Source of the DNA: Lottia gigantea
Taxonomy: Eukaryota
Assembly: GCF_000327385.1 (NCBI RefSeq)
Contig: NW_008709540.1
Span: forward strand, 24,238-88,237
DNA length: 64,000 nucleotides
Reading direction: 5' to 3'
Shown here: one piece after another, positions 30,101 to 60,793 of the stretch
Layout: every line of letters begins with the position of its first letter
How positions within the stretch are numbered: the first letter of the stretch is position 1
The notes under the pieces: generated by a model
Database searches by the model: none
Told to the model about the DNA's origin: nothing
Seen by the model: the letters and a program-made list of their open reading frames with translations, nothing else
Program-made: the position numbers and the translations under genes

Positions 30101-32416
30101 CTGTGGTAAGATGACATATTGATCATTACATTGTTCAGTCTGCCAGATTGTAATGGAGTCGACTGTAGTTAGACAGAGTTGACGCCAGTTACACGGATCA
30201 AATCCTAAACTGGTTGGAACTTCTGATCCAATATGAACTGTGGCTAGTTTGATTCCTTTCTCATAATTCCTGAAATTAATATCAGGCATTTCATTGGAAC
30301 AGGACTTTCTCAAAGGTTTACTACAGGACTTTCTCAAAGGTTTGGAACAGGACTTTCTCAAAGGTTTGGAACAGGACTTTCTCAAAGGTTTAGAACAGGA
30401 CTTTCTCAATAGTTTAGAACAGGACTTTCTCAAAGGTTTAGAACAGGACTTTCTCAAAGGTTTAGAACAGGACTTTCTCAAAGGTTTAGAACAGGACTTT
30501 CTCAAAGGTTTGGAACAGGACTTTCTCAAAGGTTTAGAACAGAATATTCTCAAAGGTTTAGAACAGGACATTCTCAAAGGTTTAGAACAGGACATTCTCA
30601 AAGGTTTAGAACAGGACTTTCTCACAGGTTTAGAACAGGACTTTCTCAAAGGTTTAAAACAGAACTTTCTCAAAGGTTTGGAACTGGACTTTCTCAAAGT
30701 TTTGGAACAGGACTTTCTCAAAGGTTTGGAACAGGACTTTCTCAAAGGTTTATAACAGGACTTTCTCAAAGGTTTATAACAGGACTTTCTCAAAGGTTTA
30801 GAACAGGACTTTCTCAAAGGTTTAGAACAGGACTTTCTCAAAGTTTAGAACAGGACTTTCTCAAAGGTTTGGAACAGGATTTTCTAAAAGGTTTGGAACA
30901 AGACTTTCTCAAAGGTTTGGAACAGGACTTTCTCAAAGGTTTGGAACAGGACTTTCTCAAAGGTTTGGAACAGGACTTTCTCAAAGGTTTACTACAGGAC
31001 TTTCTCAAAGGTTTGGAACAGGACTTTCTCAAAGGTTTGGAACAGGAGTTTCTCAAAGGTTTGGAACAGGACTTTCTCAAAGGTTTACTACAGGACTTTC
31101 TCAAAGGTTTACTACAGGACTTTCTCAAAGGTTTACTACAGGACTTTCTCAAAGCAGGTAATTTTTGAAATTTTTGTGGAAAAAATAAGGTACTTTGTAG
31201 TCTAGCAAAAAATAAGGGAGATAATTTTCAATAACAAGTTTAAAATTTTGATCTTCTTAAGATAATTTGATAAATATTAAATTAATAATAACAAAATATA
31301 CATAAAATATTTAATTTACAAAATATTAGACTATTTCAATGAGCTATTGTGGTAAAAACTCTTAAATTTCAATTGAAATGATGTGTCAAGGGAGATAACT
31401 ACAATAAAAAATAATTTTGTGTCTTAATATAGTGATTAGAGATATGGCAAGCAAATTGCAATGAAGAAATAGCTAGGAAGACAACAGTGTAGATAATCTT
31501 GCCTATTCTCTACCGAGTGTTCGAATAGGTGATTGTATGTAGGACATGGGGCTTGTTGAAATTAAAGAGTTGCAGAATTATGCCTACCATAAAATAAGTT
31601 CGAAATCTGGTAGTCCAGAAATAGCTGCTAAATATTCACTGTTAGAGAATGTCAATTTCTGATATTCTAACTTGGCGCCATCTGAAATAACAAAATTATA
31701 AAAAATAACTTAAACATAGTAGGTGGGTATGTCTATGTTTCAACTAAGCTTATAATACAAAAATTCAATAGATACTAATCAACATATTTCAGTTTTCAGA
31801 AAAATGTAAATCTTACTCAATAAAAAAATTATAAGATTTAGAAGTACAGTACAGTAGTAAGAGTAACCATATGTTTGAAACATACATTCTAAACAATTTA
31901 TTCCTGATACTGGTGCCTTGTCTATAAATAGAATTCAATAAAAAAACCAAACAGTTTAGGCCAATGTAAGAATTCAGAAACAATGGTTTGAAGCCTTCAC
32001 ATACCAAAAAATAACATGAATAATGTAAAATCTTTTCCTGCATCAAAATTTAAATGTCAAAGCCTAGAAAAAACTTGGTAGTGCTTTTCATGAGTTCTAA
32101 ATTTATTTCAAAATCTGTTTCTTTAAAATAACAGTAAAAACACAGAAGAATATATTATAACTAACCTTGTAAGACCATATGTTCTCTAAATGTAGGGTAG
32201 GTATAAATATAGATTTTAGGATTTATACAATATTCAGCTATTGCTATGTGTTTGTTTAATTTATGAACAGCTATGGGTCCTACACCTTGTCCTTTAAAAG
32301 CGAACACTGTTTCCACTCCATCTTCAGCTATTATTTTAATATTCCGACCACATTGATAACATAGAACATCACCGTCGATATACTGAGCTTCTCCACCATT
32401 GTACCCTTGACACCAC
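9010..32416 (-). CDS. Multi-exon gene for a WD40-repeat plus coiled-coil cilia/flagella-associated protein, CFAP57/WDR65-like (the CFAP43/44 family is not excluded). This is the gene-level span. Most of the locus is intron.
   Basis: The N-terminal exons translate to ...VFAFKGQGVGPIAVHKLNKHIAIAEYCINPKIYIYTYPTFREHMVLQ|DGAKLEYQKLTFSNSEYLAAISGLPDFELILW|NYEKGIKLATVHIGSE... This is co-linear with the human CFAP57 N-terminus (…GMLALSISPNRRYLAISE…ITIYELSS…[31 protein letters not shown]…). Downstream exons encode WD-repeat-like and then E/K/R-rich coiled-coil segments, for example 'EKFLTPEQKKQAEAKQKAEEERKLREK'. All junctions examined have canonical GT donors and AG acceptors with consistent phases. 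The terminal exon ends ...LRAEVERLRMRTFPALVQVEH*. Exons upstream of 32416 (the ATG exon) were not resolved. Confidence 0.6.
12709..12940 (-). CDS. CFAP57-like exon encoding ...ADTPVLDPSAPNPFAERPSTARQNAQSKIAMEQAIEELDRQSNMPENLEVQIWERLCHYRREKIESEQL. The 5' boundary is uncertain.
   Basis: Strong donor |gtgagt at 12708. There are two candidate acceptors, near 12935 and 12943. Confidence 0.45.
13010..13135 (+). repeat. Local tandem duplication carrying long G-tracts (…gggggggtgggggggagggaggaggggggag…). It is a strong G-quadruplex-forming motif on the template strand of the CFAP57-like gene.
   Basis: Direct repeats 'catcaaatagtctcacatattgttg' (two copies) and 'agtggtttaaattca' (two copies) flank G-runs of 6-7 residues. 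Similar G-rich palindromic patches occur at 8100-8260 and 24060-24180. Confidence 0.5.
14841..14970 (-). CDS. CFAP57-like coiled-coil exon encoding DVPKPLFMTTKESEEWTEEEVKSAKEYEKKVQDLKEEREKYRK. Boundaries are approximate.
   Basis: Acceptor ttttacag|. Donor |gtagga. Confidence 0.45.
15255..15425 (-). CDS. CFAP57-like coiled-coil exon encoding VTVEKFLTPEQKKQAEAKQKAEEERKLREKGDNIRERALDMMMGGVLEIKKEDELKK. It is 57 codons long, phase 0 at both ends.
   Basis: Acceptor attttag|. Donor |gtggga. Confidence 0.5.
18335..18440 (-). mobile_element. Partial (3' part) copy of the same SINE family, in a CFAP57-like intron.
   Basis: The reverse complement matches the SINE 3' region (…ggcaaaattttcctcattgcaccctgcatgacgttgcccgtcttcattagcccacatggtgcagaaaa). 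Confidence 0.5.
18640..19465. repeat. Minisatellite with a 26-bp unit (CATTGGTCAACATATC[ACG]CA[AT]TGTATT) in about 31 copies, in a CFAP57-like intron.
   Basis: Period counted directly (18661 to 18687 to …). Variable positions are confined to 2-3 sites per unit. Confidence 0.9.
19790..20545. repeat. Minisatellite with a 59-bp unit (…TTCTAGTCTTTGTATGTGTATCAG[GT][GT]ACACTTATAGCTTCTATTTACACCATTCTGATT…) in about 13 copies, in a CFAP57-like intron.
   Basis: Period 59 counted from 19791 to 19850 to 19909. Confidence 0.9.
24450..26145. repeat. Minisatellite with a 46-bp unit (ACAGTCATAGCTATAATATCTCCTTCAAATTCTACAATATATAAAT) in about 37 copies over ~1.7 kb, in a CFAP57-like intron.
   Basis: Period 46 counted from 24451 to 24497 to 24543. 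Very high inter-unit identity with scattered point variants (agct/acct/agca). Confidence 0.9.
27240..27335 (-). mobile_element. Diverged partial copy of the same SINE family, in a CFAP57-like intron.
   Basis: …gttaatgaagatggacaacagcatgcagtgtgcaatgtgggcattttgcaaaaa… resembles the reverse complement of the SINE 3' region. Confidence 0.35.
29621..29882 (-). CDS. CFAP57-like WD-region exon encoding ...RVPVADPSQEIDDEKDQDRSPTRASTRMSRYTVDVPKAAIAGLIGDNTEYLQTIQDKLERCSPVSQAWTPTGDVFIGCQGGQLLK. Boundaries are approximate.
   Basis: Acceptor ttatattatag|. Strong donor |gtaagt. A GC-rich island within the AT-rich locus. Confidence 0.45.
30102..30269 (-). CDS. CFAP57-like exon encoding NYEKGIKLATVHIGSEVPTSLGFDPCNWRQLCLTTVDSITIWQTEQCNDQYVILP.
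   Basis: Acceptor aatttcag|. Donor |gtaagt. Lies immediately 3' of the 24-bp minisatellite intron. Confidence 0.6.
30290..31150. repeat. Minisatellite with a 24-bp unit (GGACTTTCTCAAAGGTTT[GA]GAACA) in about 36 copies, in the CFAP57-like intron between the exons at 31588-31681 and 30102-30269.
   Basis: The period of 24 is a multiple of 3 and the unit is stop-free on both strands. This explains the long 8-aa-repeat ORFs (SKPLRKSC and EQDFLKGL) in the ORF track. Confidence 0.9.
31588..31681 (-). CDS. CFAP57-like exon encoding DGAKLEYQKLTFSNSEYLAAISGLPDFELILW.
   Basis: Acceptor ttatttcag|. Donor |gtaggc. Phase is consistent with the flanking exons. Confidence 0.6.
32166..32416 (-). CDS. CFAP57-like coding exon, the most 5' exon resolved. 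It encodes ...WCQGYNGGEAQYIDGDVLCYQCGRNIKIIAEDGVETVFAFKGQGVGPIAVHKLNKHIAIAEYCINPKIYIYTYPTFREHMVLQ.
   Basis: Acceptor tattttag| at 32417. Donor |gttagt at 32165. There is no in-frame ATG and a stop lies upstream in frame, so an earlier exon must exist. Confidence 0.6.
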
Positions 32417-40078: not shown

Positions 40079-40192
40079 TTAACTCGTTTGACTGGCACCA
40101 ATCAATCCATTACTGGTATTGAAGAGGTTGATGGGATTGTTGCCATCGGTTACCAACATACTCTCTAAACCAACACTCTGTAGCAGTTTAAT
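40079..40192 (-). CDS. MVP: MVP terminal coding exon encoding [37 protein letters not shown].
   Basis: Acceptor tatttcag|. The TAA stop is at 40079-40081. Confidence 0.8.
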
Positions 40193-43100
40193 CTGAAATA
40201 AAATCAAAACATCATCAGTTAACATCAGATTAAACTGAAGCAGCTGAAGGATTTCATAATATACGTGAAATCATAAAATAAAAGGGATTGGTGTAGCCAA
40301 AATATATGAAAGTAGAATGCATGTTTGTAGGGATATGGCTTGAATAGGCTAAACACTGTGATATAGTGATACAACAGAAGTTAGGTGAAATGCAAGAAAG
40401 GCTTTTTAACCTAATTTCTTACGATAATAAAGTGATTATTATTAACAGTAATATTTTGGAATCTATCCCAATATAGATGAATTCTTTCGTCAATCCCCCA
40501 ATAGAGAGCTTAGTTAAAGTTCATACAATGCTTACGCCGATTTTTTGTTTTGTTAAAATATAAATAATTATCCTACCTTGGTTTCTGGTCCAGCTCGTGC
40601 CATGGCCTTTAATGTTTCTACTCCCAGAGCATTTACTTTATTTTCAAAGTTATTGATCTAAAATACAAAATAATATTGTGGTAATTACAAATACTCTCAA
40701 CAAAAATCATACATTTCAACCCTGTTGTGTTCATTAACTGGAGATTTGCCTTAAAAAATCTGGAGATTGGCCTTAATAAATTTGTGAATTATAACATCCA
40801 AATTGGTTTTTTTTCTTTTTTTTATCTTTTTTCTTTTAAATAAGCCTTAAGCTATGTAAATTATTTATGAAAGGCCTATTATAGGTCTATATGATGCAGG
40901 AAAAGTGAATTACAGCTACCCTTATTTTCAAACACACAAGACAGTCCATTGCAAGCTGTGTCAATAAATAAAGGTGACACAGTGACATTGAATGACTAAC
41001 CTACACTGATGTCCGGCAAAGGATATTCATCCTCGGTCATTTGAGCTGCCCTGCCGGTCATGTCTGGAAAATAGAGTCAAATAAATAACTGCCTAATAAC
41101 TCACCTCAATGGCTGCCATTCTCTTAGTTCTGTTTAATTCCAGTTCATTTTCTTTCCTTAAATAATCTATTTCATATCTTCTCATCTATAGAATCATATA
41201 GAGAGAATTAAATAATCTATTTCATATCTTCTCATCTATAGAATCATATAGAGAGAATTAAATAATCTATTTCATATCTTCTCATCTATAGAATCAAATA
41301 GAGAGAATTAAATAATCTATTTCATATCTTCTCATCTATAGAAATAAATAGAGAGAATTAAATAATCTATTTCATATCTTCTCATCAATAGAATCATATA
41401 TAGAGAATTAAATAATCTATTTCATATCTTCTCATCTATAGAATCATATAGAGAGAATTAAATAATCTATTTCATATCTTCTCATCTATAGAATCAAATA
41501 GAGAGAATTAAATAATCTATTTCATATCTTCTCATCAATAGAATCAAATAGAGAGAATTAAATAATCTATTTCATATCTTCTCATCTATAGAATCAAATA
41601 GAGAGAACTAAATATTCTATTTCATATCTTCTCATCTATAGAATCAAATAGAGAGAATTAAATAATCTATTTCATATCTTCTCATCAATAGAATCAAATA
41701 GAGAGAATTAAATAATCTATTTCATATCTTCTCATCTATAGAATCAAATAGAGAGAATTAAATAATCTATTTCATATCTTCTCATCTATAGAATCATATA
41801 GAGAGAATTAAATAATCTATTTCATATCTTCTCATCTATAAAAATAAAATAAGTGGTATGAATTAAATGAAATAAAACAGAAGCATAAGATATGACAATG
41901 TTTGATGCTATTGGGCAAATTTTAACTAAACGAGATTTCAAAAAGAATTCATGAGATTAAAGATGACCAGTGTAATAAACTGTCAATAATCAAAGAAACA
42001 AAACATCTAGATCTACAATGTAATCAGTTTGCAATGAGTTCATTCTGGAGTTAGTCTCGAAGATGAAGAATATTATCAGTAATATTTATATATCTAACTA
42101 ACCTGTATTTGAGATAGAAGTTTTGCATTATGTTCTATTGTCATTGCCTCCGCTTTTAATTTAGCAGCTGTAATATAAAACAAAATATCATGTGTAACTT
42201 TAATTAACATATATCATTACATTCTTTCAAATCAATCAAAATCTGTGATAGCTACATCATAAAATGCATTGTTTAAATGTAATCATAAAATCACAGGCAT
42301 CTGTCTGAAAATTGGAATTTGCAAATCGATACTACCACTTAATTTAAGAAATATCCGTGATGGACCCATTCAGGTAACCATGATTATATCTAAAGATTTT
42401 ACTTGATCAATTAAACCTTGAAGAAGTCTTTACTTATGATTCTAGTTCCAGTTGTAAATAAGTAAGGATAATCCAGGAAAGATCAATCCCTATAAGTTTG
42501 TCAAGTACCAGCTGGAATCCTTTTCTTTCTTTCAATCTTTTTCTACCTACCTTCAATTTCACTGTGACATTCTATCAGAGTTTTCTCAGCGTTGGCCTGG
42601 GCTTCAGCTTTCGCCTGCCCAGTTGATTCAACAGCTGCTGTCATTGCACATAATTCTAATAACTTTGTTCTCTCCCTTTCTGAGTTACGTTCATTAGCCA
42701 GTTTCTGACGTTCTAGGTTGCCCTTAGCGATTTGTTCGTTTCGTTGAGCTTCGTGTGATGCTGCTGCCTCCACAGAACTTGAAAACAAAACCAAGAAATA
42801 TCTCTGAAGTACATGTCTTTACCATAAAACAAAATATCTGTATCTTATTCTGTATTTTTACGAAAATTCAGTAATCTGATTGGATAATTAACTCAATTTG
42901 AAATCAATATCTATGATTGACATCTGTTTGAAGTTTTAAGAATAAGGTCCCAGAAGTTTACTAAAGTTATTGTATGAATATCATTATTATTCGGCAAGCC
43001 CTTTTTAGGATAAAATAGTCGTACCTAGTAGATATTTCTATAGCCATTTGAACTGATTTACTCAGTGAATCTCTCATCTTTCTATCAACAGGTTCAATAG

Positions 43101-46100
43101 ATTGAACATCTAAACTTGTTATTACCTGTAAATATAATGAAATGTTTTAATTTGGTCAGCCAAATTCACCATCACTGTGTAACAAATAAGGACTGCGAAT
43201 CCCCCCGCTTCAAATGTATACCTGAATATAAAGTGAAAGTAGAAATAATATAGTAAAAAAAAAAATTTGAACCTACCAGATTATTGACGTCAAATTGTAA
43301 TTTAGAACTATTAACACCAAAAACAGCATACTGTATAACTTGCAGAGAATTACGATGAAATTTATCAAATGGAACTTGTGCTATAGCGCCTCTTATTTTC
43401 CCTCCTGAAATAGAATAAATAACAATAAAATAACAATAAAATAACAATAGAATAACAGTAAAATAACAACAAAATAACAATAGAATAACAATAACAGTAA
43501 AATAACAAAAGAATAACAATAGAATAACAAAAGAATAACAATAACATTACAGTAGAATAACAATAACAATAGAATAACAATAGAATAACAGTAAAATAAC
43601 AATGAAATAACAATAAAATAACAGTAAAATAACAATGAAATAACAATAGAATGACAGTAAAATAACAATAACATAACAGTAAAATAACAATAGAATAACA
43701 ATAACAATAGAATAACAATAAAATAACAATAACAATAGAATAACAATATAATAACAATAAAATAACAGTAAAATAACAATGAAATAACAATATTGATAAT
43801 ATATGGCTATTGTAATTTTAATTCATAAAAAGAAGCTCTACAAGAAGTTTAAGAAATGGAGGTTTTAGATGCTGATTTTCTAATGTTCACAAATTGTGAT
43901 AAGATCATATTGTTTGTGTATAGAATGTTGTTTAAAATCAAATAAAAAAAAACACATACCTATTTGGTTACAAGCAAAACCAATAAAATCAGGAACAGCA
44001 AATATTTTCTCTTCATGTTCAGAATCAATCTAAAATATATTTCAAACAAACTTCAAAACAAACCTAACGTCCAACACATTGTGATATAAACTTGAATTAA
44101 TTACTGAAGATCAGTGGAGGTTAAATTATACATTGTCATAAGGAGGCTATCTGAAACAATTCAGATCAGAGAATTTCTAAATAGATTTTAAACACAGTGA
44201 TCTCTGGTTCCATCTAATATTCACAGCCTGGAGCACACGTGACCTTGAATTGCTCATTATACGTACAATATAGACCTATTCAAGATAAACTAAAACAACA
44301 TAAATATTAAAATCCCAACATACCTCAAAATAATTATTAAAAGCTATTTTTATTTGTAATCTGGCATGATCTGAAGTTTCAACCTGAAAAAAAAAAAAAT
44401 AGTTAAATTTATAAAAATACCATTGGACCATACAATTATAATTTGAAATGAATATTCATAGACTGATGATGAATATTAATGACCTACCTCTATAATGTCT
44501 GTAATAAAATCAGGACCTAACAGCAGACATAATGACTTTAATGCATTTGGTACTTTAGGTTTACCAGCTGGAATACAAGCAGAAATCACTTTCAGGAAAT
44601 CTACAGAAACATTTATAACAAAACACATACCTTACATACCTTATAACAGTTCTTAGAATTCAATGATATACAAAGGTGAAGTGCAAAGAATAATATCTTT
44701 TTCATGATGCAAAAAGCCAGTCCATACCACCTGCCTAAGTTCACTTACATGTACACTATTTGAAGAATTTAGTTCAGATTAACTGTGTCAAGAACAAGAA
44801 CCATGTTACATACCTCACAGCATCCCGAATACTTATAAGAAATATAATTCTATCAACTCACCACTTAAAGACAGGACATTGAAGTTTTCATGAGGGCCAA
44901 GAATAACTAAATCTGGTCCAAATATAACTCTAGCTGTCTTCTTCTGATAGTTATAAACCTATAAAACACAATGTTTCAATAACCTATAATCTGAAGTCTA
45001 GTTCTGCCGTGTATTTTGTATTAGTGTAAATTAGTAAATTATGTTATATTTAGTTTAAATATGGTGTATTTATTTTCTAATTTTATGGAGGATGTGGTGA
45101 CATATAAAAAACAATAATAAATATTACCTGTACAGCAGTATTACCAGGGCAACGATATGTAACAACTCTTGTTTTATTTCTTCCCTATAAATCATTGCGA
45201 GAGAAAAAAAAAAGTAATGTTTATACGTAATTAGATGACTTGGAATCTTGTGTTCAATTTCAGAAAAAAAACCACCTATAATAAAAATTGACAGTAAGAA
45301 TACTAGGAGAGGTGGGTTAAATAATCTTAAAATATGACTCAAGATGATATCCAACCCCAGATCTCAATTTCATCAAGCAAACAACTTGCTTATTAAGTCA
45401 GTGCAGCTTCCATCTAAATTATAAAACATATTATTACAGACCTTCCAGTGATTATGGTAGCTTTTAACTTCCTGAGCAAAAGAAGTTTCCAGTAAGAACT
45501 GTTTGTTGAAGTGAACAAAACTAAATGATTCAGTAAAGATGCCCCTAAATGACGATAACTTACCTGTAATATTTTAGGATCTATGGACTGTTCGTAATAA
45601 GCTAATTTACGAATCTCACCAGATCCGCTGCCACCACCTTGTCTAAAAATATATAAATAATTCTAAATACATAAACAGAGTTCAATTCTAATATTAGTCT
45701 TGTGTTTAAGTAAAAAACTCTGTTGAAACTTTACTATATTTATATGTGATATGGTGAAACTGGTGAATTGCTCATATATTATCATTTTAAAATTTGGGAT
45801 ATTTTTTGAATTTCTGATAGAGAACTATGTTTTGGGGTTTTTTCCATAAAATAAAAGTTTTCTATTTTGACCAATGCAAGATCTAAGAATATTATACAGG
45901 GTAAGATGAGCTGAATTAATCAAGGAAACACAACCTACCTTAACAATTCCTCAACATCATCTGAAAGTATTTTAGCCCAGAGTTCCTCCCATTCTTGTAA
46001 CATATAGGAACACTGTCCCATCACAGACCTTACTTCACCAGTTCTAATATTCTGTATATAAATACCTTCATTCTTACTTAACGGTACTGCCACTCTTGAA

Positions 46101-49100
46101 AAAATAACAATGGAATACTGTAGAATGATACTGTTATACAGTGTTAAATCCTATAGGTTTGTTGATGGGTTTTACCGTAATTAAAATCAATGCAGAACAT
46201 ATAAATACTTAAATAATAACTGGCAGCTGGCTCAAGTAAATTCTATGTTTACTCCTAAGCATATAATAATTCATTTTAACACAGGTTTACAAAATACTTC
46301 AGATTTTTTGCCCAGCATTAACGCAATAAGCCATACTGGTTTTCTTTCATCTTAAATATTGTAAGAAATGGTGCTCATTTGGTTTACAAGTCAGATAAAT
46401 TAGACTACAATCTGCCTCTCTCAGTCCTCTGTATATTTTCTATTTGGTACGAATCTTACCTCTGTGACAGTATTTTAACGTGTATCGGTGGAATATATTC
46501 TAATGGTCCCGTTATCATCCATCTATCTCCAGCCTTTCTTATTACTTCCTCTGAAAACACAACTATTATGATTATTACTAAGGATTGTCACAACATCATC
46601 ATTAAACTTAAATAGAAGAACAAAAAATATTTATGTTTACCACAGATCTTTACAATATCAAGCTATTACCAAACACTATACAATGTCAAGCTATTACCAA
46701 ACACTATACAATGTCAAGCTATTACCAAACACTATACAATGTCAAGCTATTACCAAACACTATACAATGTCAAGCTATTACCAAACACTATACAATATCA
46801 ACCTATTACCAAACCCTATACAATATCAACCTATTACCAAACCCTATACAATATCAAACCATTACCAAACCCTATACAATGTCAAGCTATTACCAAACCC
46901 TATACAATGTCAAGCTATTACCAAACCCTATACAATGTCAAGCTATTACCAAACCCTATACAATATCAAGCTTTTACCAAACCCTATACAATATCAAGCT
47001 ATTACCAAACCCTATACAATATCAAGCTATTACCAAACCCTATACAATATCAAGCTATTACCAAACCCTATACAATATCAAGCTTTTACCAAACCCTATA
47101 CAATATCAAGCTATTACCAAACCCTATACAATATCAAGCTTTTACCAAACCCTATACAATGTCAAGCTATTACCAAACCCTATACAATATCAACCTATTA
47201 CCAAACCCTATACAATGTCAAGCTATTACCAAACCCTATACAATGTCAAGCTATTACCAAACACTATACAATGTCAAGCTATTACCAAACACTATAAGAA
47301 GAAGTTAATAGTTTGACATTGTGTGCCACAAAGGACTTAAATGTTAATAATTCATGTCATTGTGAAAACAAACCTTCCTCCAGATCATCTGTAAAGTCCT
47401 CTATTGCCTGTAGTACTAGAGTTTCATCAGCTGATAATATTCTCGTATTCTGTATTCCACTCTCTAGTTTCTCTCCTGGAACAATAATAATATAGGTAAG
47501 CAAACAAGCATCTCTCTTGTTAACTTGAAATATTTCAGTTATAGACAATCTGTACAGAACCAGTGATTGTTCTTCAATATATCCAACCATCACTGATGTC
47601 ATTATGACACAAAAAACATTACTAAATTAATTAAATAAACCAATAAATTAATGGCACACTACCCTTCTCAATATCTCCTATAAATATAAACAACACAATA
47701 CTGTCCTTTGCTCAACACAGTCTTCTCTACTCTACTCAATATATCCTATAAATATAACAACACAATACTGTCCTTTACTCAACACAGGCTTCTCTACCCT
47801 TCTCAATATATCCTATAAATATAAACAACACAATACTGTCCTTTACTCAACACAGTCTTCTCTACCCTTCTCAATATATCCTATAAATATAAACAACACA
47901 ATACCATCCTTTACTCAACACAGTCTTCTCTACCCTTCTCGATATATCCTATAAATATAAACAACACAATACTGTCCTTTACACAACACAGTCTTCTCTA
48001 CCCTTCTCAATATATCCTATAAATATAAACAACACAATACTGTCCTTTACTCAACACAGTCTTCTCTACTCTACTCAATATATCCTATAAATATAAACAA
48101 CACAATACTGTCCTTTACTCAACACAGTCTTCTCTACTCTACTCAATATATCCTATAAATATAAACAACACAATACTGTCCTTTACTCAAAACAGTCTTC
48201 TCTACTCTTCTCAATATATCCTATAAATATAAACAACACAATACTGTCCTTTACTCAACACAGTCTTCTCTACTCTACTCAATATATCCTATAAATATAA
48301 ACAATACAATACTGTCCTTTGACATTGGCATTTCGCCTGGTTATCTGAATCAGATCACAAACTTAGTTAACACAGTATAAAGGCTTGACTCAAAATCCTT
48401 TTTCTAAACCTATGAATAAGCTAGTGTTTTAAATGCTGTAGTACTTACCACACCAATCTGAGGTATTATCAGATCTGTTTGTTCACCAGTTACTAACCAT
48501 GCTTCACCAGGTAATCTATAAATACAAACAAATCAGACTCACATTTGTAAGATAAACCTATAAATATGATGTTTGTAGTAAATCATTTAGTAAGAGAAAC
48601 CTAATAAATATTATGTCTTTAGTTAATCATTTAGTACGGGAAATCTAACAAATATGATGTTTGTAGTAAATCATTCAGTAAGAGAAACCTAATAAATATT
48701 ATGTCTTTAGTTAATCATTTAGTACGGGAAATCTAACAAATATGATGTTTGTAGTAAATCATTCAGTAAGAGAAACCTAATAAATATTATGTCTTTAGTT
48801 AATCATTTAGTAAGAGAAATCTAACAAATATGATGTTTGTAGTAAATCATTTAGAGAGAGAAACCTAATAAACATGATGTTTGTAGTAAATCATTTAGTA
48901 AGAGAAACCTTATAAATATGATGTCTATAGTAAATCATTTAGTAAGAGAAACCTAATAAATATTATGTCTGTAGTTAATCATTTAGTACGGGAAATCTAA
49001 CAAATATGATGTTTGTAGTAAATCATTTAGTAAGAGAAACCTAACAAATATGATGTCTGTAGTAAATCATTTACTAAGAGAAACCTAATAAATATGATGT

Positions 49101-52100
49101 CTGTAGTAAATCATTTAGTAAGAGAAACCTAACAAATATGATGTCTGTAGTAAATCATTTAGTAAGAGAAACCTAATAAATATGATGTTTGTAGTAAATC
49201 ATTTAGAGAGAGAAACCTAATAAACATGATGTTTGTAGTAAATCATTTAGTAAGAGAAACCTAATAAATATTATGTCTTTAGCTAATCATTTAGTAAGGG
49301 AAATCTAACAAATATGATGTTTGTAGTAAATCATTTAGTAAGAGAAACCTAACAAATATGATGTCTGTAGTAAATCATTTACTAAGAGAAACCTAATAAA
49401 TATGATGTCTGTAGTAAATCATTTAGTAAGAGAAACCTATAAATATGATGTCTTTAGTTAATCATTAAGTAAGAGAAACCTAACAAATATGATGTTTGTA
49501 GTAAGAGAAACTTAATAACTATGATGTTTGAAGTAAACAATTTAAGAAGAGAAACCTAATAAATATGATGTTTGTAGTAAATCATTTAGTGAGAGTAACC
49601 TAACAAATATGATGTATGTAGTAAATCATTTAGTAAGAGAAACCTAACAAATATGTCTGTAGTAAGAGAAACTTAATAACTATGATTTTTGAAGTAAACT
49701 ATTTAAGATGAGAAACCTAATAAATATGATGTTTGTAGTAAATCATTTAGTGAGAGTAACCTAACAAATATGATGTATGTAGTAAATCATTTAGTTAGAG
49801 AAACCTAACAAATATTATCTGTAGTAAGAGAAACTTAATAACTATGATTTTTGAAGTAAACTATTTAAGAAGAGAAACCTAATAAATATGATGTTTGTAG
49901 TAAATCATTAAGTTAGAGAAACCTAACAAATATGATGTCTTTAGTTAATCATTTAGTAAGAGAAACCTAACAAATATGATGTCTGTAGTAAAAGAAACTT
50001 AATAACTATGATGTCTGTAGTAAACAATTTAAGAAGAGTAACCTAATAACTATGATGTTTGTAGTAAATCATTTAGTAAGAGAAATCTTTGAATATGATG
50101 TTTGTAGTAAAACATTTAGTGAGAGAAACCTTGTAAGAGAAACCTAATAAATATGATGTATGTAGTAAATCATTTAGTAAGAGAAACCTTTAAATATGAT
50201 GTTTGTAGTAAATCATTTAGTAAGAGAAACCATGTTATGTTCATAGTAAATGATGTAAGCATATCAACTGGTACCTGTGTTTTCCCATAAAGTCTGTGAG
50301 TCTTTCTGTGGCACCAAGATGATAGCCAGTGTCGGGGGTTAGGGTTATTTTTTCCTCCAGTCCAAGGAAGTTTTCATGAACTCCTTGTAGGTAGGCGCCT
50401 TGTTCTGTGATGTACCATTCTTCTCCTGTAACTCTCCTCCTGCAAATACAACTTTAGTCTATTGTCTACAAAACGATAAGAAATTTTGAATCAAGTTATT
50501 GCTCTATGGCAAGACAATGTAAACAGAAAAATTTATTGGTTATCGCCTTTTGTGTCAGTAAAAAAACCCTGAAAATGAACCTTTCGAGATCATTTTATGT
50601 TTTGGATATAAAATCCTCATCAGGACAGAGGTAATAATTGAAAAAGGAAGTTTAACTTACCTGCCACTACTATCAATACAGTCTTGTTTAGCAGATAGTC
50701 TTAAAACTTGATCCATTTTAATAACAACTGGTTCAACTATTTTATTTATTTCCTGTTTAAATATAACTTGTTATCATATACAACAATTCATTAAATATCT
50801 GGACATAGACAGGGTGATTCTAGGTGATCCAAACCATTTAGTTCAGTTTGCCACATTATTTTCATTACTTTGATATTTACACCATGTTTATACAAATTTT
50901 AGGAACAAACCCCCAGAAGCAGATAATATCTGTTTTTCATTCTATTTTCCCTTTCCCTGTCTTAAAGCATTTTGGATGTTTTAAAAACAAACCAACCCTT
51001 GTTTAACAGTCAGGTTTTAATAGATATAATACCTCCTTAAAACAAAAACTTAAATTTTCAAAAATTTGGCTGAAAAAATTGTTGTTTTGAAAGGGTTTGA
51101 CTGCTCTGTTCAACATCAGAACTATAAACTTAAAAATAAAAAGACAAAAGACTCACTGCCTCGACTGTAGGTATATAGGTGATGGGTCCTTCAATATGCC
51201 ACATATCTCCAGCACGACGGACCACACCTCCATCATCATGGTCTACCAGGGCTGTCACAGACAACGCATGATTAGCAGGAATTACTGGTAGAGGCTTGAT
51301 AGCACTGGAATAATCTTTGGATGTTTTACCAAAATTCTCAGCACCATACAGAGATTCACCTGGATACAGTGGAAATGGTTCCTGGAAGTGAAAAACATGT
51401 CTTACCTGTAAACCCTTCATTTGTAAATGAACTCATCAGAACTAAATTACAGTATACTCTGCGTAATCCGACATACATTGGAACCGCAAAAAAATGTCGG
51501 ATTAGCGAGAGTGTCGAAGTACTCAGAGTTTCAACATTTTTTAACATGTTACCATTTATAGCTCAATGACCCACATTCTATACACGGTACCTTTCTAATA
51601 ATAAGACAGTAATAAAAGACAATTCAGTTGTATACGTTACTATTATTTTGTACATTTTATCCAACTGATAGAAACAATGCCTGCTTGGACAGGTTCAATC
51701 TATGGAACAAGAGGTACAAGTATAATACCAACAAGATATAAGATGCTTCACTGACTGTGATGGTCTGAATTATTACTTGTAATGAAAAGTATACAAATTC
51801 TTACCCCATTCAGTCTAACTTCTGACTGACCCATTTTCAATTCACAGAACTTCCCAGCTTCATATTTACTAAAATATAACAAATTTATAGAATCAAATCA
51901 AAATTAATTTTACTTACTTTTTTTTGTAACTAATACTACTATAGCCCAACAAGGATCATGCAACAATACATGACATGATGCACAAGGGAATTCAGAGTTT
52001 CAAGTTTAAAATAGCCAGGAAAATGTTCCAATGATGTCAATATGTGGTATTTCCACCTTATTTCCATGATCTGAATAACTTGAATATACCTCATTGGATT

Positions 52101-52223
52101 CAGGATGATACAATAATGTCCAGGTGGAACTTTCACCATTGGACATGGTTCTGTTATTAAAACTTCATTGGTCTGCAGAGCAAAATTCTTGGGACCAATC
52201 TCAATCTGTGAGATATTGGTATT
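40079..52223 (-). CDS. MVP: Major vault protein (MVP) gene, gene-level span. At least 14 coding exons are resolved from the exon encoding the 'QNSNVSRVEVGPK' equivalent through to the stop. The first coding exon (the M...IPPYHY equivalent) was not found upstream of 52223.
   Basis: Exon translations are co-linear with human MVP along the whole protein. [43 protein letters not shown] matches [54 protein letters not shown]...[15 protein letters not shown] matches DPFPLYPGE...[32 protein letters not shown] matches [34 protein letters not shown] matches [44 protein letters not shown] matches [68 protein letters not shown] matches [39 protein letters not shown]. The C-terminus [32 protein letters not shown] matches [32 protein letters not shown]. 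Confidence 0.85.
40577..40657 (-). CDS. MVP: MVP penultimate exon encoding [27 protein letters not shown].
   Basis: Acceptor aattttag|. Donor |gtagga. Matches human ...IRDLAVAGPEMQVK. Confidence 0.7.
41150..41845. repeat. Minisatellite with a 50-bp unit (AATAATCTATTTCATATCTTCTCATCTATAGAATCA[AT]ATAGAGAGAATTA) in about 14 copies, in an MVP intron.
   Basis: Period 50 counted from 41161 to 41211 to 41261. Confidence 0.9.
42551..42777 (-). CDS. MVP: MVP coiled-coil cap-helix exon encoding [75 protein letters not shown].
   Basis: Acceptor ttttcaag|. Donor G|gtaggt. Strong match to the human MVP cap-helix region. Confidence 0.75.
43025..43125 (-). CDS. MVP: MVP exon encoding [33 protein letters not shown](S).
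   Basis: Acceptor ttacag|. Donor AG|gtacga. Matches human [36 protein letters not shown]. Confidence 0.7.
43277..43404 (-). CDS. MVP: MVP exon encoding (S)[43 protein letters not shown].
   Basis: Acceptor atttcag|. Donor |gtaggt. The 9-bp-unit repeat array lies immediately 5' in the upstream intron. Confidence 0.7.
43395..43800. repeat. Degenerate short tandem repeat with an AATAACAAT / AGAATAACA / GTAAAATAACA unit of about 9 bp, in an MVP intron abutting the exon at 43277-43404.
   Basis: Visible periodicity. It produces the Leu/Phe/Tyr-rich ORFs on the minus strand in the ORF track. Confidence 0.85.
46460..46550 (-). CDS. MVP: MVP exon encoding [30 protein letters not shown](R).
   Basis: Acceptor gttttcag|. 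Donor AG|gtaaga. Matches human [32 protein letters not shown]. Confidence 0.75.
46640..47300. repeat. Minisatellite with a 28-bp unit (TATACAATGTCAAGCTATTACCAAACAC) in about 23 copies, in an MVP intron.
   Basis: Period 28 counted from 46681 to 46709. Confidence 0.9.
47374..47590 (-). CDS. MVP: MVP exon encoding ...[72 protein letters not shown]. The 5' acceptor position is uncertain; tcag|TGATGG near 47590 is the likeliest.
   Basis: [23 protein letters not shown] is the same length as, and co-linear with, human [23 protein letters not shown]. Weak donor G|gtttgt at 47373. Confidence 0.55.
47640..48320. repeat. Minisatellite with a unit of about 67-68 bp (…TCCTATAAATATAAACAACACAATACTGTCCTTTACTCAACACAGTCTTCTCTAC[CT]CT[AT]CTCAATATA…) in about 10 copies, in an MVP intron.
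   Basis: Period counted from 47735 to 47802 to 47870. Confidence 0.85.
48449..48515 (-). CDS. MVP: MVP exon encoding (R)[21 protein letters not shown](V). The exact donor is ambiguous between |gtaagt and |gtgtgg one codon earlier.
   Basis: Acceptor tttatag|. Matches human [27 protein letters not shown]. Confidence 0.6.
48540..50230. repeat. Minisatellite with a 44-bp unit organised as an 88-bp higher-order dimer of two alternating variants (…AAATCATTTAGTAAGAGAAACCTAATAAATATTATGTCTTTAGTT / AATCATTTAGTACGGGAAATCTAACAAATATGATGTTTGTAGT…). There are about 38 units over ~1.7 kb, in the MVP intron 3' of the exon at 50275-50439.
   Basis: 'taagagaaac' recurs at 48591 and 48679 with the 'tacgggaaatc' variant in between. 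Downstream units (49500-50230) are more degenerate, with ~36-44 bp spacing. Confidence 0.85.
50275..50439 (-). CDS. MVP: MVP exon encoding [53 protein letters not shown](R).
   Basis: Acceptor tatttgcag|. Donor AG|gtacc. The 44-bp minisatellite begins just 3' of this exon. Confidence 0.7.
50661..50736 (-). CDS. MVP: MVP exon encoding [25 protein letters not shown](R).
   Basis: Acceptor aaaatag|. Donor AG|gtaagt. Matches human [32 protein letters not shown]. Confidence 0.7.
51156..51381 (-). CDS. MVP: MVP exon encoding [75 protein letters not shown].
   Basis: Acceptor cacttccag|. Donor G|gtgagt. Strong match to human MVP residues ~100-175. Confidence 0.75.
51785..51848 (-). CDS. MVP: MVP small exon encoding (S)[21 protein letters not shown].
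   Basis: Acceptor tattttag|. Strong donor |gtaaga. The phase links the two neighbouring exons. Similarity to human 'FDVTGQVRLRHAD' is weak, so this is the least certain MVP exon. Confidence 0.45.
52090..52223 (-). CDS. MVP: MVP exon encoding [44 protein letters not shown](R).
   Basis: Acceptor tattttcag|. Weak donor AG|gtatat. Upstream in frame there is a stop within 8 codons and no ATG. Confidence 0.7.
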
Positions 52224-54279
52224 CTGAAAATATAAATGGGTTGAAGTTACGTTATCAATAAAACCAAACTTTGTCTGAGGTTTTATCTGATGTCTTCATC
52301 ATTAGTAAAGGTTTGATCAAACTACTTGATGAGAAAAAAAACTTTTCAATCTGTGTACAGGCAAATGTTAAGATAACCCAAGATAAACCCTTTAAAAATA
52401 TACCATAATATCATTAAAGGAAAAAGTCTTCTGAATATTATGTTTAATTAATGACAAATAAGAATTAAAATTTCATCCAGAGAAATGGAATATTTATCTA
52501 CAACTAAGCTGTATCAGCTGACAACAATCATATTTCTAAGACAATCTGCCTTTTAAAATGGATTTAGAGAGTATAATGGCAATAAATACAGTTTAAAATC
52601 ATGTTTTTGAAACCTTTAGTTATTTGAAATCAGCAAATGTGTCATTTTGAATTCAGGATCTTGTATCATGAAGTGTTCCTTATTTAATTTAATTTTTCTC
52701 TGTTTCAAAGTATTTTCGACTGTGGCCTGGTACTGGAAACATGGCTCATACGTCATGAGATTTTAGATTTAAAGCCTTGTATGATGGTGTATATATGTTT
52801 GTATTTATATAGATTATATTATATTAATGTTATTTATCATTAATTGATTGTTGAGAATGCTACAAAATTAAAGTGACCTATAGGTCCATAGGGCCGGTTG
52901 TTTGTAATACTTGATATGCACGTAATATATGTATACTTATCATAACACATGTCACTGTAATAAACAATTACTTACTTACTTATCCCCTCATAAATGTGTC
53001 AATACAATTGATCTATTTGAAGTTTCAGCAGATTGGAAGAATTGCTATATGTATTGTTTTATGTTTGATAATTGAAACGTTGTAGAAATTAAAGAAAGGA
53101 GTAGTATATCTATAATAGTCTTCTTATTTATTTAATATAAATTGTTTTCATTTCTTATATAGAGTACAGATATTAACACTTCCTCAAGGTGGTTTAATAA
53201 TAAAGTAGGTCAAGAAACAACCAGAGCAGAACAGTCAATAATAGTAATATATATATCATCTAATCTTTGAATGATAATTAAAAGTAAAAGTACATTAGAT
53301 AAATATTGTGAGAGGTGGTCCAATATTCCTCCAAGTAGTCAGGTATTATTACACGACCAGTAAAAAACATAAGGGATTGAATATTGACTGTAGCTTTGTG
53401 AAACCTGGTAAATAATAACAGCAAACACCAAGAAAGGCAAAAAACACCGATCCAGTCAGTAATATAATTAATTATAGATAAACTACTATTAGACTGGGCT
53501 AAGATTTACTGCTCTTTGGACAATGTTTACAGAATTCAATAGAGGTATTCCTTTCCTTATGAATCTAATGAAAATGTCAACCATTGGAAAAGTTATTTGT
53601 AAATACGATTTTAAAGGAAAAGTAGGAAAAGTAGGTCATATTGATTTGATTTATCCTTAGGTTAGAGTTTAGAATCTAAGACAAATGGCATGCAGTTAAA
53701 CATTATATTTTGAATTTGTGAAATGAGAGAAAAAATATTAAATGCCATGCTTATAGCCTTATTTTAAACAGAGTAGTCGCCAGCTTATAAATATTGGACT
53801 GGTGTTATTGGAAATTTACATTGGATAAGACGAAGTACGAGACTTAAAATATCTATAAGAAATCACTTACATTGTTCAGAATATGAATGAAGGTGAAGGG
53901 AGGGACACTGATTACTCTACTCATCTCGACTTTCAGCCTGTCAAACTATAAATGTCCTCAAAAACTTCAAATCCTAGCCCCACAGTTCCTGGTAACAACT
54001 TGTTCTACTTTGTACCAACTTGTAAACAATCGAGTTTCTACAAATATTAACTCAAAATTCAACACAAAACGAAATTTCATCAAATTACGTCATTTATAAA
54101 AATAGTAACTTACAAAACGAAAGATTGAAAATACAGAAAAATGTCGATTAGGTTAATTTTACATTGACGTAGGTTTCTTGCAATTGACGTCAATGGTTGT
54201 AGCAGTACAAATTATAACATCTCACGGTATGATTTTTATCTTAAAGTGACTAGTAGAACGAAACATATCTGTCTCTATT

Positions 54280-56261: not shown

Positions 56262-56740
56262 ATGAAGAGGAACCTATAATCACTGGAAGAGAGTCTGTAG
56301 TTCCCGAGATTACTTCAGCATCCCCTGTCACCGACCCTACTACCGTACCCCCTGCCACCGACCCCCCCACACCGAAAACTTGTGTGTATGTAATGAAGGA
56401 ATACCCTTCCACTGATGTCAAATCAGAGCTCGTTCTCCCGGAAATATTCAACATCACTCGAGAAGAATGTGAAGATATTTGTAAGAAGGACGCATCCTGT
56501 ATCGAAGTCGAATCCTTCGGCAGAACTCCAGTAAGGTGTACCCTTAATATGGGTCGTACCCGTCTAGCTGGGCTGAACGAGGCTATATGTTTATCTTCCT
56601 GTAAAACCAGACCCGAATGCTTTGCAATAAGTATACGTCAGATGAAATGTCAACACTTCAATCGTCTTTTCAACTCATCTGAGTTAATACCCGACGAAAC
56701 ACATTTGTCTAAGGTTTTTATGAAAGTATGCCAACATTAA
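56262..56740 (+). CDS. PAN/apple-like secreted protein, copy A, exon 2. It encodes a Thr/Pro-rich linker (TSASPVTDPTTVPPATDPPTPKT) followed by a Cys-rich domain: CVYV...EECEDICKKDASCIEVESFGRTPVRCTLNMGRTRLAGLNEAICLSSCKTRPECFAISIRQMKCQHF...KVCQH*.
   Basis: Acceptor tttttag| at 56261 with phase matching exon 1. The TAA stop is at 56738-56740. The joined CDS is 654 nt (217 aa). The Cys spacing and the hydrophobic/Gly pattern are PAN/apple-like. This domain assignment was made by eye and should be confirmed by a profile search. Confidence 0.65.
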
Positions 56741-58599: not shown

Positions 58600-59000
58600 T
58601 AAGGTCGTATATTGTCGTCACCCACAATTGGTCGTAAACACTCTAGAAGGCACAATTCTTGACGAATTTTGACGAAACTTTGTATGATTGTCTATTAATG
58701 CCCAAAAATGAACCCTATTGAAAATCAGAAAAATTGAAAAATATTTAGTATGAATTATTGCCCTTGTTCGTAAAATGCTCGTAAACACTCTTGAAGGTGC
58801 AGTTCTTGACAGATTTTGATGAAACTGGGTGTGAGAGTTTGTAATCACCCAAGGATGAACCCTATTGAAAATCAGAAAAATGGAAAAATATTTAGTATGA
58901 GTTATTGCCCTTGTTCTTGAAAACGCGTTCAATTTTTAGCTCGTAAACATTCTAGAAGGCACAGTTCTTGACGGATTCTGACGAAGCTTGGTAATATTAT
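58600..59000. repeat. Tandem repeat with a unit of about 149 bp in about 2.7 copies, lying between the convergent PAN-like genes.
   Basis: 'ccctattgaaaatcagaaaaat[tg]gaaaaatatttagtatga[ag]ttattgcccttgttc' recurs at 58712 and 58861. 'ctcgtaaaca[ct]tct[at]gaaggc[ac]ca[ag]ttcttgac[ag]…' recurs at 58640, 58785 and 58940. Confidence 0.75.
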
Positions 59001-60281: not shown

Positions 60282-60793
60282 TTATGCAGTTAGAGGTAGA
60301 CATATTTTGAGATACATGTACGAATCATTGCGTCGTTGTAAATCCGTTGTAAAGAAAGCACGGTTATAGTGTTTACATGTGATCCCATGCGAGCTAGCTT
60401 GAAGACAGGCAGGGTTGGCCATACAGGAGGATGCACACGAATCCGCGGACTCCCCAGTCAGACGGATAATACCCATGTTTAGGGTGCATCTTACTGGAGT
60501 TTTACCGTATGATTCGACATCGATACAGGATACGTTCTTATCACAAATATCTGTACATTCTGCTAAAGTGACGTTGAAGACTTCCGGGTTAATGACCTCT
60601 GGTAGTACTTCCGTATTGTTCTTCATCCCATAAAAACATCGCTTCGCTGCTGTCTCGGTCCCGTTAGACCCGGTGTCTATGATAGGCTCGGTGGTAGTGG
60701 GGACGGTAGAGGGCTCAGTAACAGGGAGCACAGTGGTAGACTCCAGACTAGTTTCGAGAACTACAGACTCTCTGCCATTGATAACAGATTCAT
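60282..60793 (-). CDS. PAN/apple-like secreted protein, copy B, exon 2. It encodes a Thr/Pro-rich linker followed by a Cys-rich domain: RCFYG...AECTDICDKNVSCIDVESYGKTPVRCTLNMGIIRLTGESADSCASSCMANPACLQASSHGITCKHYNRAFF...KICLPLTA*.
   Basis: Acceptor tttttcag| at 60794. The TAA stop is at 60282-60284. The core motif 'C.DIC.K..SCI.VES.G.TPVRCTLNMG..RL.G' is shared with copy A. Confidence 0.65.

Follow-up and report, generated by a model that had tools for sequence, protein, structure and literature searches.

The stretch analyzed here, a window of 64,000 nt on contig NW_008709540.1 of the limpet Lottia gigantea, carries a gene of the major vault protein (MVP) family on its minus strand. The gene is LOTGIDRAFT_123412, listed in UniProt as 'Major vault protein' (836 aa). 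Members of this family build the shell of vault particles. The coding sequence spans positions 53924 to 40079, all of its introns are GT-AG, and the surrounding DNA is AT-rich, with a GC content of 0.27 to 0.41. Taken together, the results described below lead us to read the locus as a divergent MVP gene with minisatellites in five introns, two of them spanning splice junctions, in which the remainder of one exon, exon 8, is missing as assembled. We give this joint reading a probability of about 0.85.

MVP-like peptides were obtained from stop-free stretches of the minus strand between 40.1 and 52.2 kb. When four of them were concatenated, they matched the MVP chains in the PDB with an E value of 5.8e-42 and also hit MVP fragments with Pfam vault domains. 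In a protein search, the assembled protein matched LOTGIDRAFT_123412 with 94% identity at full coverage, and 788 of the 795 residues contributed by the window exons were exactly equal to the LOTGIDRAFT_123412 protein; the shortfall of 6% is there solely because the exon joins differ. The next-best match was the MVP of Patella vulgata (70% identical), and further matches included dozens of mollusc, annelid, brachiopod, echinoderm, cnidarian, and sponge MVPs (45 to 59%). Five Pfam domains were found in the assembled protein, all above the curated cutoffs: Vault (PF01505, 157 bits in four stretches), Vault_2 (PF17794, 43.8 bits), Vault_3 (PF17795, 116.5 bits), Vault_4 (PF17796, 52.4 bits), and MVP_shoulder (PF11978, 134.4 bits). 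Exons 20 to 24 align to residues 667 to 850 of human MVP, which comprise the shoulder followed by the cap-helix and cap-ring C terminus. The family identity proposed in the initial annotation of this DNA is therefore borne out by the PDB and Pfam matches. That annotation also held a gene model in this lineage to be useful in itself, a view that we do not share: LOTGIDRAFT_123412 is already annotated with the same N terminus, and dozens of mollusc MVP models exist. The gene as such brings nothing new; what is new is the presence of arrays that span splice junctions, one of them at the very exon that lacks its greater part and for which the public protein model is faulty. A literature search for Lottia minisatellites or Lottia MVP returned nothing specific.

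The exon chain was determined with a spliced protein-to-genome aligner of our own code, which allows GT-AG introns in three phases and affine gaps. Human MVP (identical to PDB chain 11dr_A over all 893 residues) and P. vulgata MVP served as queries. The exon structure of the Patella gene, 26 coding exons, was derived from its own locus (OW026350.2, here L001). Splice sites were scored with a position weight matrix built on real sites, 47 of them acceptors; the lowest scores of true sites in the two genes are 3.6 bits for acceptors and 3.2 bits for donors. Alignment to both queries yields 24 coding exons in Lottia, 23 intact and 1 partial. The intact exons are given below, with a slash marking the exon border in splice-site sequences.

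53871..53924, minus strand: coding exon 1, 54 nt, ATG at 53924, encodes MSRVISVPPFTFIHILNN, donor AAT/gtaagt, phase 0
52090..52223, minus strand: exon 2, 134 nt (Patella also 134), donor GAG/gtatat, phase 2, 9.4 bits
51805..51868, minus strand: exon 3, a micro-exon of 64 nt (Patella exon 3 also 64 nt)
51157..51381, minus strand: exon 4, 225 nt (Patella 225), acceptor ttccag/GAA, begins EPFPLYPGE
50661..50752, minus strand: exon 5, 92 nt
50275..50439, minus strand: exon 6, 165 nt, equal to Patella exons 6 and 7 (70+95) without the intron
48449..48515, minus strand: exon 7, 67 nt, donor GTG/gtaagt, phase 0
47374..47475, minus strand: exon 9, 102 nt, acceptor ttattattgttccag/GA, phase 1, 12.1 bits, equal to Patella exon 10 in length and phase
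46550-46460, 46094-45939 (equal to Patella 61+95 nt), 45642-45564, and 45184-45128, minus strand: exons 10 to 13
44958-44862, 44567-44488, 44383-44324, and 44029-43960, minus strand: exons 14 to 17
43404-43277, 43125-43025, 42777-42551, and 42167-42103, minus strand: exons 18 to 21, shoulder and cap-helix region
41105..41185, minus strand: exon 22, 81 nt, first 28 nt within the last unit of a 50-bp array
40657-40577, minus strand: exon 23
40192-40079, minus strand: exon 24, including the TAA stop

Exon lengths in Lottia and Patella correspond one to one (54, 134, 64, 225, 92, ..., 81, 81) save for four exceptions, and the phases match. Two Patella introns have no counterpart in Lottia, where 70+95 nt appear as 165 nt and 61+95 nt as 156 nt; the window intervals concerned, 50275-50439 and 45939-46094, correspond to Patella exons 6+7 and 12+13, respectively. 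Exon 17 has a 9-nt deletion in Lottia (70 nt versus 79 nt in Patella); exons 10 to 17 are otherwise of the same length as in Patella, and all are GT-AG. The terminal exon including the stop is 114 nt in Lottia and 105 nt in the Patella alignment. The 23 clean exons are about 72% identical to Patella and contain no stops. For exon 4, human-guided starts at 51431, 51414, or 51405 were considered and rejected, as the orthologues and the Patella gene give 51381; the extra VRHVFHFQ in the human-guided version is there because the alignment ran into the polypyrimidine tract.

The strand, the 3' end (stop codon at 40081-40079), and the acceptor of exon 2 at 52223 are those of the initial annotation. 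It had resolved at least 14 exons and expected at least 20, a count now corrected to 24 coding exons. Its micro-exon exists, with 64 nt and use in orthologues, but had been placed at 51785-51848, 20 nt away from the true 51868-51805. Its statement that the coding sequence was recovered almost end to end does not hold, for exon 8 lacks 85 nt at its 3' end, or about 28 codons.

The first coding exon, previously reported as not found, exists at 53924-53871, outside the interval covered at the time. It reads ATG AGT AGA ... AAC AAT/gtaagt with an in-frame stop directly upstream, and its donor and the exon 2 acceptor at 52223 are both in phase 0. Taken alone, the tblastn match with residues 7 to 24 of human MVP is weak (E value of 1.7). 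The spliced alignments show 12 of its 18 residues to be identical to Patella exon 1, which has the same length and phase, and the peptide is identical to the annotated N terminus of LOTGIDRAFT_123412, so that the exon is already part of the public model. Intron 1 is 1,647 nt long, and the earlier prediction of a first intron of more than 1 kb was thus correct. Just upstream, 13 nt before the ATG, there is a plausible minus-strand acceptor, ggacatttatagtttgacag/GCT at 53937 (6.4 bits), which hints at a noncoding first exon further upstream. Human MVP has a noncoding first exon.

Tandem Repeats Finder confirmed five arrays within the gene, with periods of 50, 11, 28, 68, and 44 and a total of 4,057 nt. 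Taken from the 5' end of the gene (periods 44, 68, 28, 11, and 50), they fill 96%, 68%, 78%, 68%, and 71% of five introns. The arrays and the unique segment that adjoins one of them are as follows.

48542..50231, no strand assigned: 44-bp array, about 36 copies, 78 to 80% matches, 96% of the 1,759-nt intron 6
47659..48320, minus strand: 68-bp array, nine full copies, 662 nt
47476..47658, minus strand: unique 183 nt between the 68-bp array and exon 9, ahead of which the other 85 nt of exon 8 and its donor would be expected
46651..47296, no strand assigned: 28-bp array, 23 copies, 96% matches, 78% of intron 9
43417..43792, no strand assigned: 11-bp array, 35 copies, 80% matches, 68% of intron 17
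41158..41840, minus strand: 50-bp array, 13.7 copies (14 in register)

All five had been noticed before, with two of the periods given as about 9 and 67 where 11 and 68 are correct. The reported closeness of arrays to exon edges also stands: the 11-bp array ends 12 nt before the exon 18 acceptor at 43404, and the 44-bp array lies 23 to 43 nt from the exon 6 donor at 50275. What has to be given up is the description of the arrays as entirely intronic, since two of them are amplified segments made of an acceptor and the start of an exon. The 44-bp unit in intron 6 holds CTTACTAAAT and pyrimidine-rich stretches followed by AG, and intron 6 would accordingly contain repeated branch-point-like and acceptor-like motifs.

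The gene makes up 21.6% of the window length and contains 5 of the 10 strong arrays in the window (binomial P = 0.045). Arrays cover 29% of the gene versus 9% of the rest of the window. These figures lend the gene's description as unusually satellite-laden some weak support; on the other hand, 12 arrays make up 14% of the span of the orthologue in Patella, at other positions and with unrelated units. Because arrays are common both in the window and in the Patella orthologue, the satellite-rich introns appear to be a fast-changing feature of limpet genomes and nothing special to MVP. A special mechanism seeding arrays at splice junctions was considered and found to be unneeded: with these unit sizes and 46 internal boundaries, the probability that two of five founders fall across a boundary by chance is 0.13.

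The 50-bp unit consists of the 22-nt 3' end of an intron (TTCTCTCTATTTGATTCTATAG) and the first 28 nt of exon 22 (ATGAGAAGATATGAAATAGATTATTTAA). Among the 14 copies, 10 have intact decoy acceptors, 3 have AG changed to TG, and the last holds the authentic acceptor at 41185; this last copy alone runs on into the rest of exon 22. Scored with the matrix of 47 real acceptors, the decoys reach 7.4 to 12.7 bits compared with 7.4 bits for the authentic site. The unit contains no GT, and with the array printed in register, reading in from any upstream copy gives a 13-letter peptide. The gene is intact at exon 22 despite the ten decoy acceptors upstream. The last acceptor would be chosen by exon definition, because it alone has a frame open to the donor 81 nt away, and transcripts using a decoy would carry a premature stop and then be degraded. 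The AG-to-TG copies lie at 41385, 41535, and 41685, a spacing of 150 nt that corresponds to every third copy in part of the array. This pattern could point to a 150-nt higher-order repeat; alternatively, selection against some of the decoys could apply.

The second junction-spanning array lies at exon 8. Its 68-bp unit, earlier taken for an intronic satellite of 67 bp, is a part of that exon in amplified form: it comprises the last 11 nt of intron 7 (TATATTTATAG) and the first 57 nt of exon 8, encoding DIL[R/S]... A 49-nt core is matched nine times, starting at 48288, 48220, 48152, 48084, 48016, 47948, 47880, 47812, and 47745. When translated, the unit agrees with how the 142-nt exon 9 of Patella begins, AIVREVYKTVLSKGKYCV. 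From the orthologous exon in more than 40 species other than Lottia, we built a profile hidden Markov model (HMM) and searched it against the 4,697 six-frame peptides of the window. It matched all nine copies, with E values from 1.6e-7 to 1.5e-5. The copies are 95% alike; their peptides differ by R/S, S/C, Q/W, L/S, and T/P, and the differences between copies are mostly nonsynonymous. The acceptors of the units score 8.8 to 12.1 bits, and there is no usable donor, the best in-phase candidate scoring -3.2 bits versus 3.2 bits for the weakest true donor.

The second half of the exon (VLDPVD...SFFLHP) had no match to the HMM anywhere in the window, the best E values being above 0.4 at irrelevant places. 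Of the 142 nt of exon 8, 85 nt are absent together with the donor. They are orthologous to Patella residues 287 to 314. The counterpart of human residues about 285 to 311 is absent from the Lottia genomic sequence; we take this segment to be repeat domain 6 of the rat structure. With exon 8 lacking 85 nt, an intact and complete set of repeat domains is not found in one open reading frame. The 100 nt upstream of 47475 were compared with the last 85 nt of the Patella exon, and the similarity was not above that of 21 other intron ends.

Several candidates for the complete exon or its remainder were tried and rejected. A copy in the unique flank, at 48344-48308, is 4 residues short, and only KGQYCIV in it matches the HMM (E value of 0.16), compared with 19 residues matched by the array units. 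A remainder that had diverged and become fused to exon 9 (QSLVLYRL...LTYIIIVP) has no HMM match, and its DNA is like that of other intron ends; position 47475 also speaks against such a fusion, being a 12.1-bit acceptor that gives the exact 102-nt length of the Patella exon. The likeness of LTYIIIVP to LTSFFLHP reflects a pyrimidine tract only, because the DNA is no closer than at other intron ends. Nothing was found when the other two frames of 47476-47658 were searched for a frameshifted remnant. An HMM match at 28668-28618 is a chance one within a WD/beta-propeller-like neighbor.

Skipping of exon 8 gives ...IGVERN followed by a stop, that is, a stop after 3 codons. When splice paths from exon 7 to exon 9 were enumerated, no in-frame route was found through sites as strong as the weakest real ones; the enumeration gave only nonsense micro-exon solutions or paths through far weaker sites. 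Because exon 8 lacks 85 nt as well as the donor, no canonical in-frame MVP mRNA can be formed from the locus as assembled.

The public LOTGIDRAFT_123412 model departs from our orthologue-guided model at four joins. It has 11 additional residues where the exon 2 donor is placed 33 nt later (52057), it has no exon 8 and about 30 aa of translated intron instead, it gains 4 aa (VVFS) at the junction of exons 9 and 10, and it loses 5 aa (RQGGG) at the start of exon 12. The second of these joins is bridged with a weak donor inside exon 7 at 48454 (3.6 bits) and an acceptor at 47571 (0.1 bit). By hand count, the translated intron, which is part of the unique 183-nt segment, matches Patella at 4 of 29 residues, versus about 72% elsewhere. 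The public model thus hides the missing exon segment by translating intron. As this protein feeds UniProt and comparative sets, the faulty joins matter for those who use it in structural or phylogenetic work.

Lottia has a second MVP gene, LOTGIDRAFT_214098 (860 aa), whose protein shares 65% identity with human MVP and 90% with its counterpart in Patella caerulea. For the LOTGIDRAFT_123412 protein the identity to human MVP is 44%, and for its clade mates it is 44 to 48%. In a neighbor-joining tree, human MVP groups with the second copies of Lottia, Patella, Haliotis, Solemya, Owenia, Lingula, and Watersipora, and LOTGIDRAFT_123412 groups with sponge, cnidarian, echinoderm, and hemichordate MVPs and the first lophotrochozoan copies. 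This is a quick distance tree, midpoint-rooted and with sampling biased by the search, and the placement of LOTGIDRAFT_123412 in the more divergent of two lophotrochozoan MVP clades is to be taken as a lead rather than a result. LOTGIDRAFT_123412 is not a one-to-one orthologue of vertebrate MVP, as LOTGIDRAFT_214098 is closer to the human protein (65% versus 44%) and groups with it. Two deeply diverged MVP genes occur within one species in Lottia, Lingula, and Owenia and are seen in congeneric pairs of species in Patella and Haliotis. Most eukaryotes have been stated to have a single MVP (2024 paper, PMC11219742), a statement with which two diverged MVP genes in many marine invertebrates sit awkwardly. 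Among the sequences was also an MVP fragment labeled 'MAG TPA: colicin uptake protein, partial [Allocoleopsis sp.]', 52.6% identical to human MVP, which looks like eukaryotic contamination or misbinning in a cyanobacterial metagenome bin.

The arrays would have arisen by local tandem duplication, through replication slippage or unequal exchange. A duplication across an acceptor and the start of its exon would keep the last copy intact and push the others into the intron, where, on the intron side of the authentic splice site, they would be nearly neutral and hence persist; selection would remove a duplication confined to an exon. A later deletion at the edge of the array, in the haplotype that was sequenced or in the course of assembly, would then have taken away the remainder of exon 8.

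Some observations weigh against the reading of the locus given at the outset. The edges of the 68-bp array are unlike those of a one-step duplication: the first unit begins 36 nt inside its exon portion, and the final unit is incomplete by 17 nt. Its history must have been more complex than a single duplication. That the other 23 exons are clean makes a long-standing pseudogene less likely and favors a recent event or an artifact. A targeted protein search for Lottia transcript fragments over the junction of exons 7, 8, and 9 found none. A noncanonical splice path, for example that of the public model, may also be in use.

How the remainder of exon 8 came to be missing can be explained in more than one way. 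An artifact of the assembly or of the haplotype has somewhat less than an even chance of being the cause. The real genome, or the other haplotype, would then join the last 68-bp unit to the 85 nt and the donor, leaving the gene intact, and the piece would have been lost when reads were joined across the repeat, or the sequenced allele would be a defective one in a very heterozygous animal. The open frames, GT-AG introns, and Patella identity of the other 23 exons fit this explanation, as do the 95% likeness of the 68-bp copies, which makes them young or homogenized, and their irregular array edges, expected after a misjoin or a deletion; the 50-bp array displays the intact arrangement that would be expected. 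However, the window has no N gaps, and an array of 662 nt is short enough for single reads to span. The public protein was built on the same sequence, so the structure is reproducible at least within the reference.

A real lesion is a possibility that we regard as doubtful. The gene would be a recent pseudogene or a null allele of an MVP-like paralogue, tolerated as LOTGIDRAFT_214098 is intact. The absence of the exon 8 remainder and donor speaks for a lesion, along with the frameshift to a stop upon exon skipping and the lack of an in-frame path through splice sites of normal strength. A second full-length paralogue, 65% identical to human MVP, exists, and the clade of LOTGIDRAFT_123412 evolves faster, with a Lottia-Patella identity of 70% compared with 90% in the other clade. 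Yet no other defect is present in 2,390 coding nt, so the loss would have to be very recent or polymorphic. If the structure is real, we would tentatively suggest that a minisatellite on the exon 8 acceptor expanded and that the rest of the exon was subsequently deleted at the edge of the array, in a paralogue caught in the middle of inactivation or in a polymorphic null allele. A real loss of exon 8 would show how a minisatellite can disable a gene.

It is improbable that the gene is functional as assembled, with an unusual splice path giving an altered or shortened sixth repeat domain. Such a path could lead from the donor at 48454 to the acceptor at 47571, as in the public model, or from one 49-nt array copy to an acceptor at 47592. 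Both options keep the frame open to the normal stop, and the frame is open for 89 codons through 47626-47360. The sites required, however, are far weaker than any real one, with 0.1 and -2.1 bits for the acceptors and -3.2 bits for the donor in the unit, where the true minima are 3.6 bits for acceptors and 3.2 bits for donors, and the segment has no match to the exon HMM and agrees with Patella at only 4 of 29 residues in a part where the family is highly conserved. That the nine copies, with their good acceptors and slightly different peptides, are mutually exclusive alternatives of exon 8 is very hard to believe, as they hold only the first 57 of 142 nt, have no usable donor (best in phase, -3.2 bits), are separated by only 11 nt of intron, and differ mostly by nonsynonymous changes, as expected without selection.

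The rest of the window contains five further arrays and a few open reading frames (ORFs).

18641-19461: array, period 26
19729-20542: array, period 59
24439-26142: array, period 46
30297-31154: array, period 24
58632-58916: array, period 147

The 24-bp array lies in a minus-strand open frame that runs into a WD/beta-propeller-like peptide (...ATVHIGSEVPTSLGFDPCNWRQLCLTTVDSITIWQ) and may touch an exon of a neighboring gene. Two cysteine-patterned ORFs, at 56384-56740 on the plus strand and 60282-60731 on the minus strand, resemble each other (...VSCIDVESYGKTPVRCTLNMG...), and both have weak, subthreshold PAN-domain matches (E values of 0.004 to 0.03); upstream of the MVP gene there may thus be a pair of PAN/apple-domain genes to which these ORFs belong as exons. 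The longest nonrepeat ORF in the window, at 5151-6167 on the minus strand, starts with ATG and encodes a proline-rich sequence of 338 aa with no Pfam match. Rfam and tRNA scans of the window gave no matches.

Compared with human and rat MVP in the vault particle (PDB 11dr, 4v60, and 7pkz), the Lottia gene has the same domain order of repeat domains, shoulder, cap-helix, and cap-ring. Its product can be aligned over human residues 7 to 850, although human MVP is in a different clade and 44 to 48% identical. The P. vulgata gene is the orthologue, with a 70% identical protein and the same exon lengths and phases. It differs in having two extra introns, for a total of 26 coding exons, a longer span of 26 kb, and an intact 142-nt exon where Lottia has the partial exon 8. 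Its introns, too, are rich in minisatellites, and one of these, a 50-bp array at 16241-16775 of L001 with 10.7 copies, extends across a splice junction: it repeats the last 24 nt of exon 6 and the donor GTAAAC... and places about ten decoy donors after the real one. The intron in question is one that Lottia does not have.

The closest known parallel to the two Lottia arrays is intron 7 of human F7, in which a 37-bp variable number tandem repeat (VNTR) has a first unit spanning the exon 7 donor and the identical pseudo-donors are silent (PMC1557585). As in both Lottia arrays, the F7 unit includes the exon-intron junction, and the authentic site stands beside a run of pseudo-sites, identical in F7 and identical or near-identical in Lottia. 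The F7 VNTR repeats a donor of which the first copy is used, while the Lottia arrays repeat acceptors of which the last must be used. The exon is intact in F7, whereas the exon 8 array of Lottia is without the rest of its exon. Silence of the decoys is experimental for F7; for Lottia we infer it. In the Lottia arrays, nature provides a 3' splice-site equivalent of the well-studied donor VNTR in F7; a donor-side case, with the same layout as F7, is found in the Patella gene, and the array with ten decoys at exon 22 would offer a natural test case for 3' splice-site choice among identical copies.

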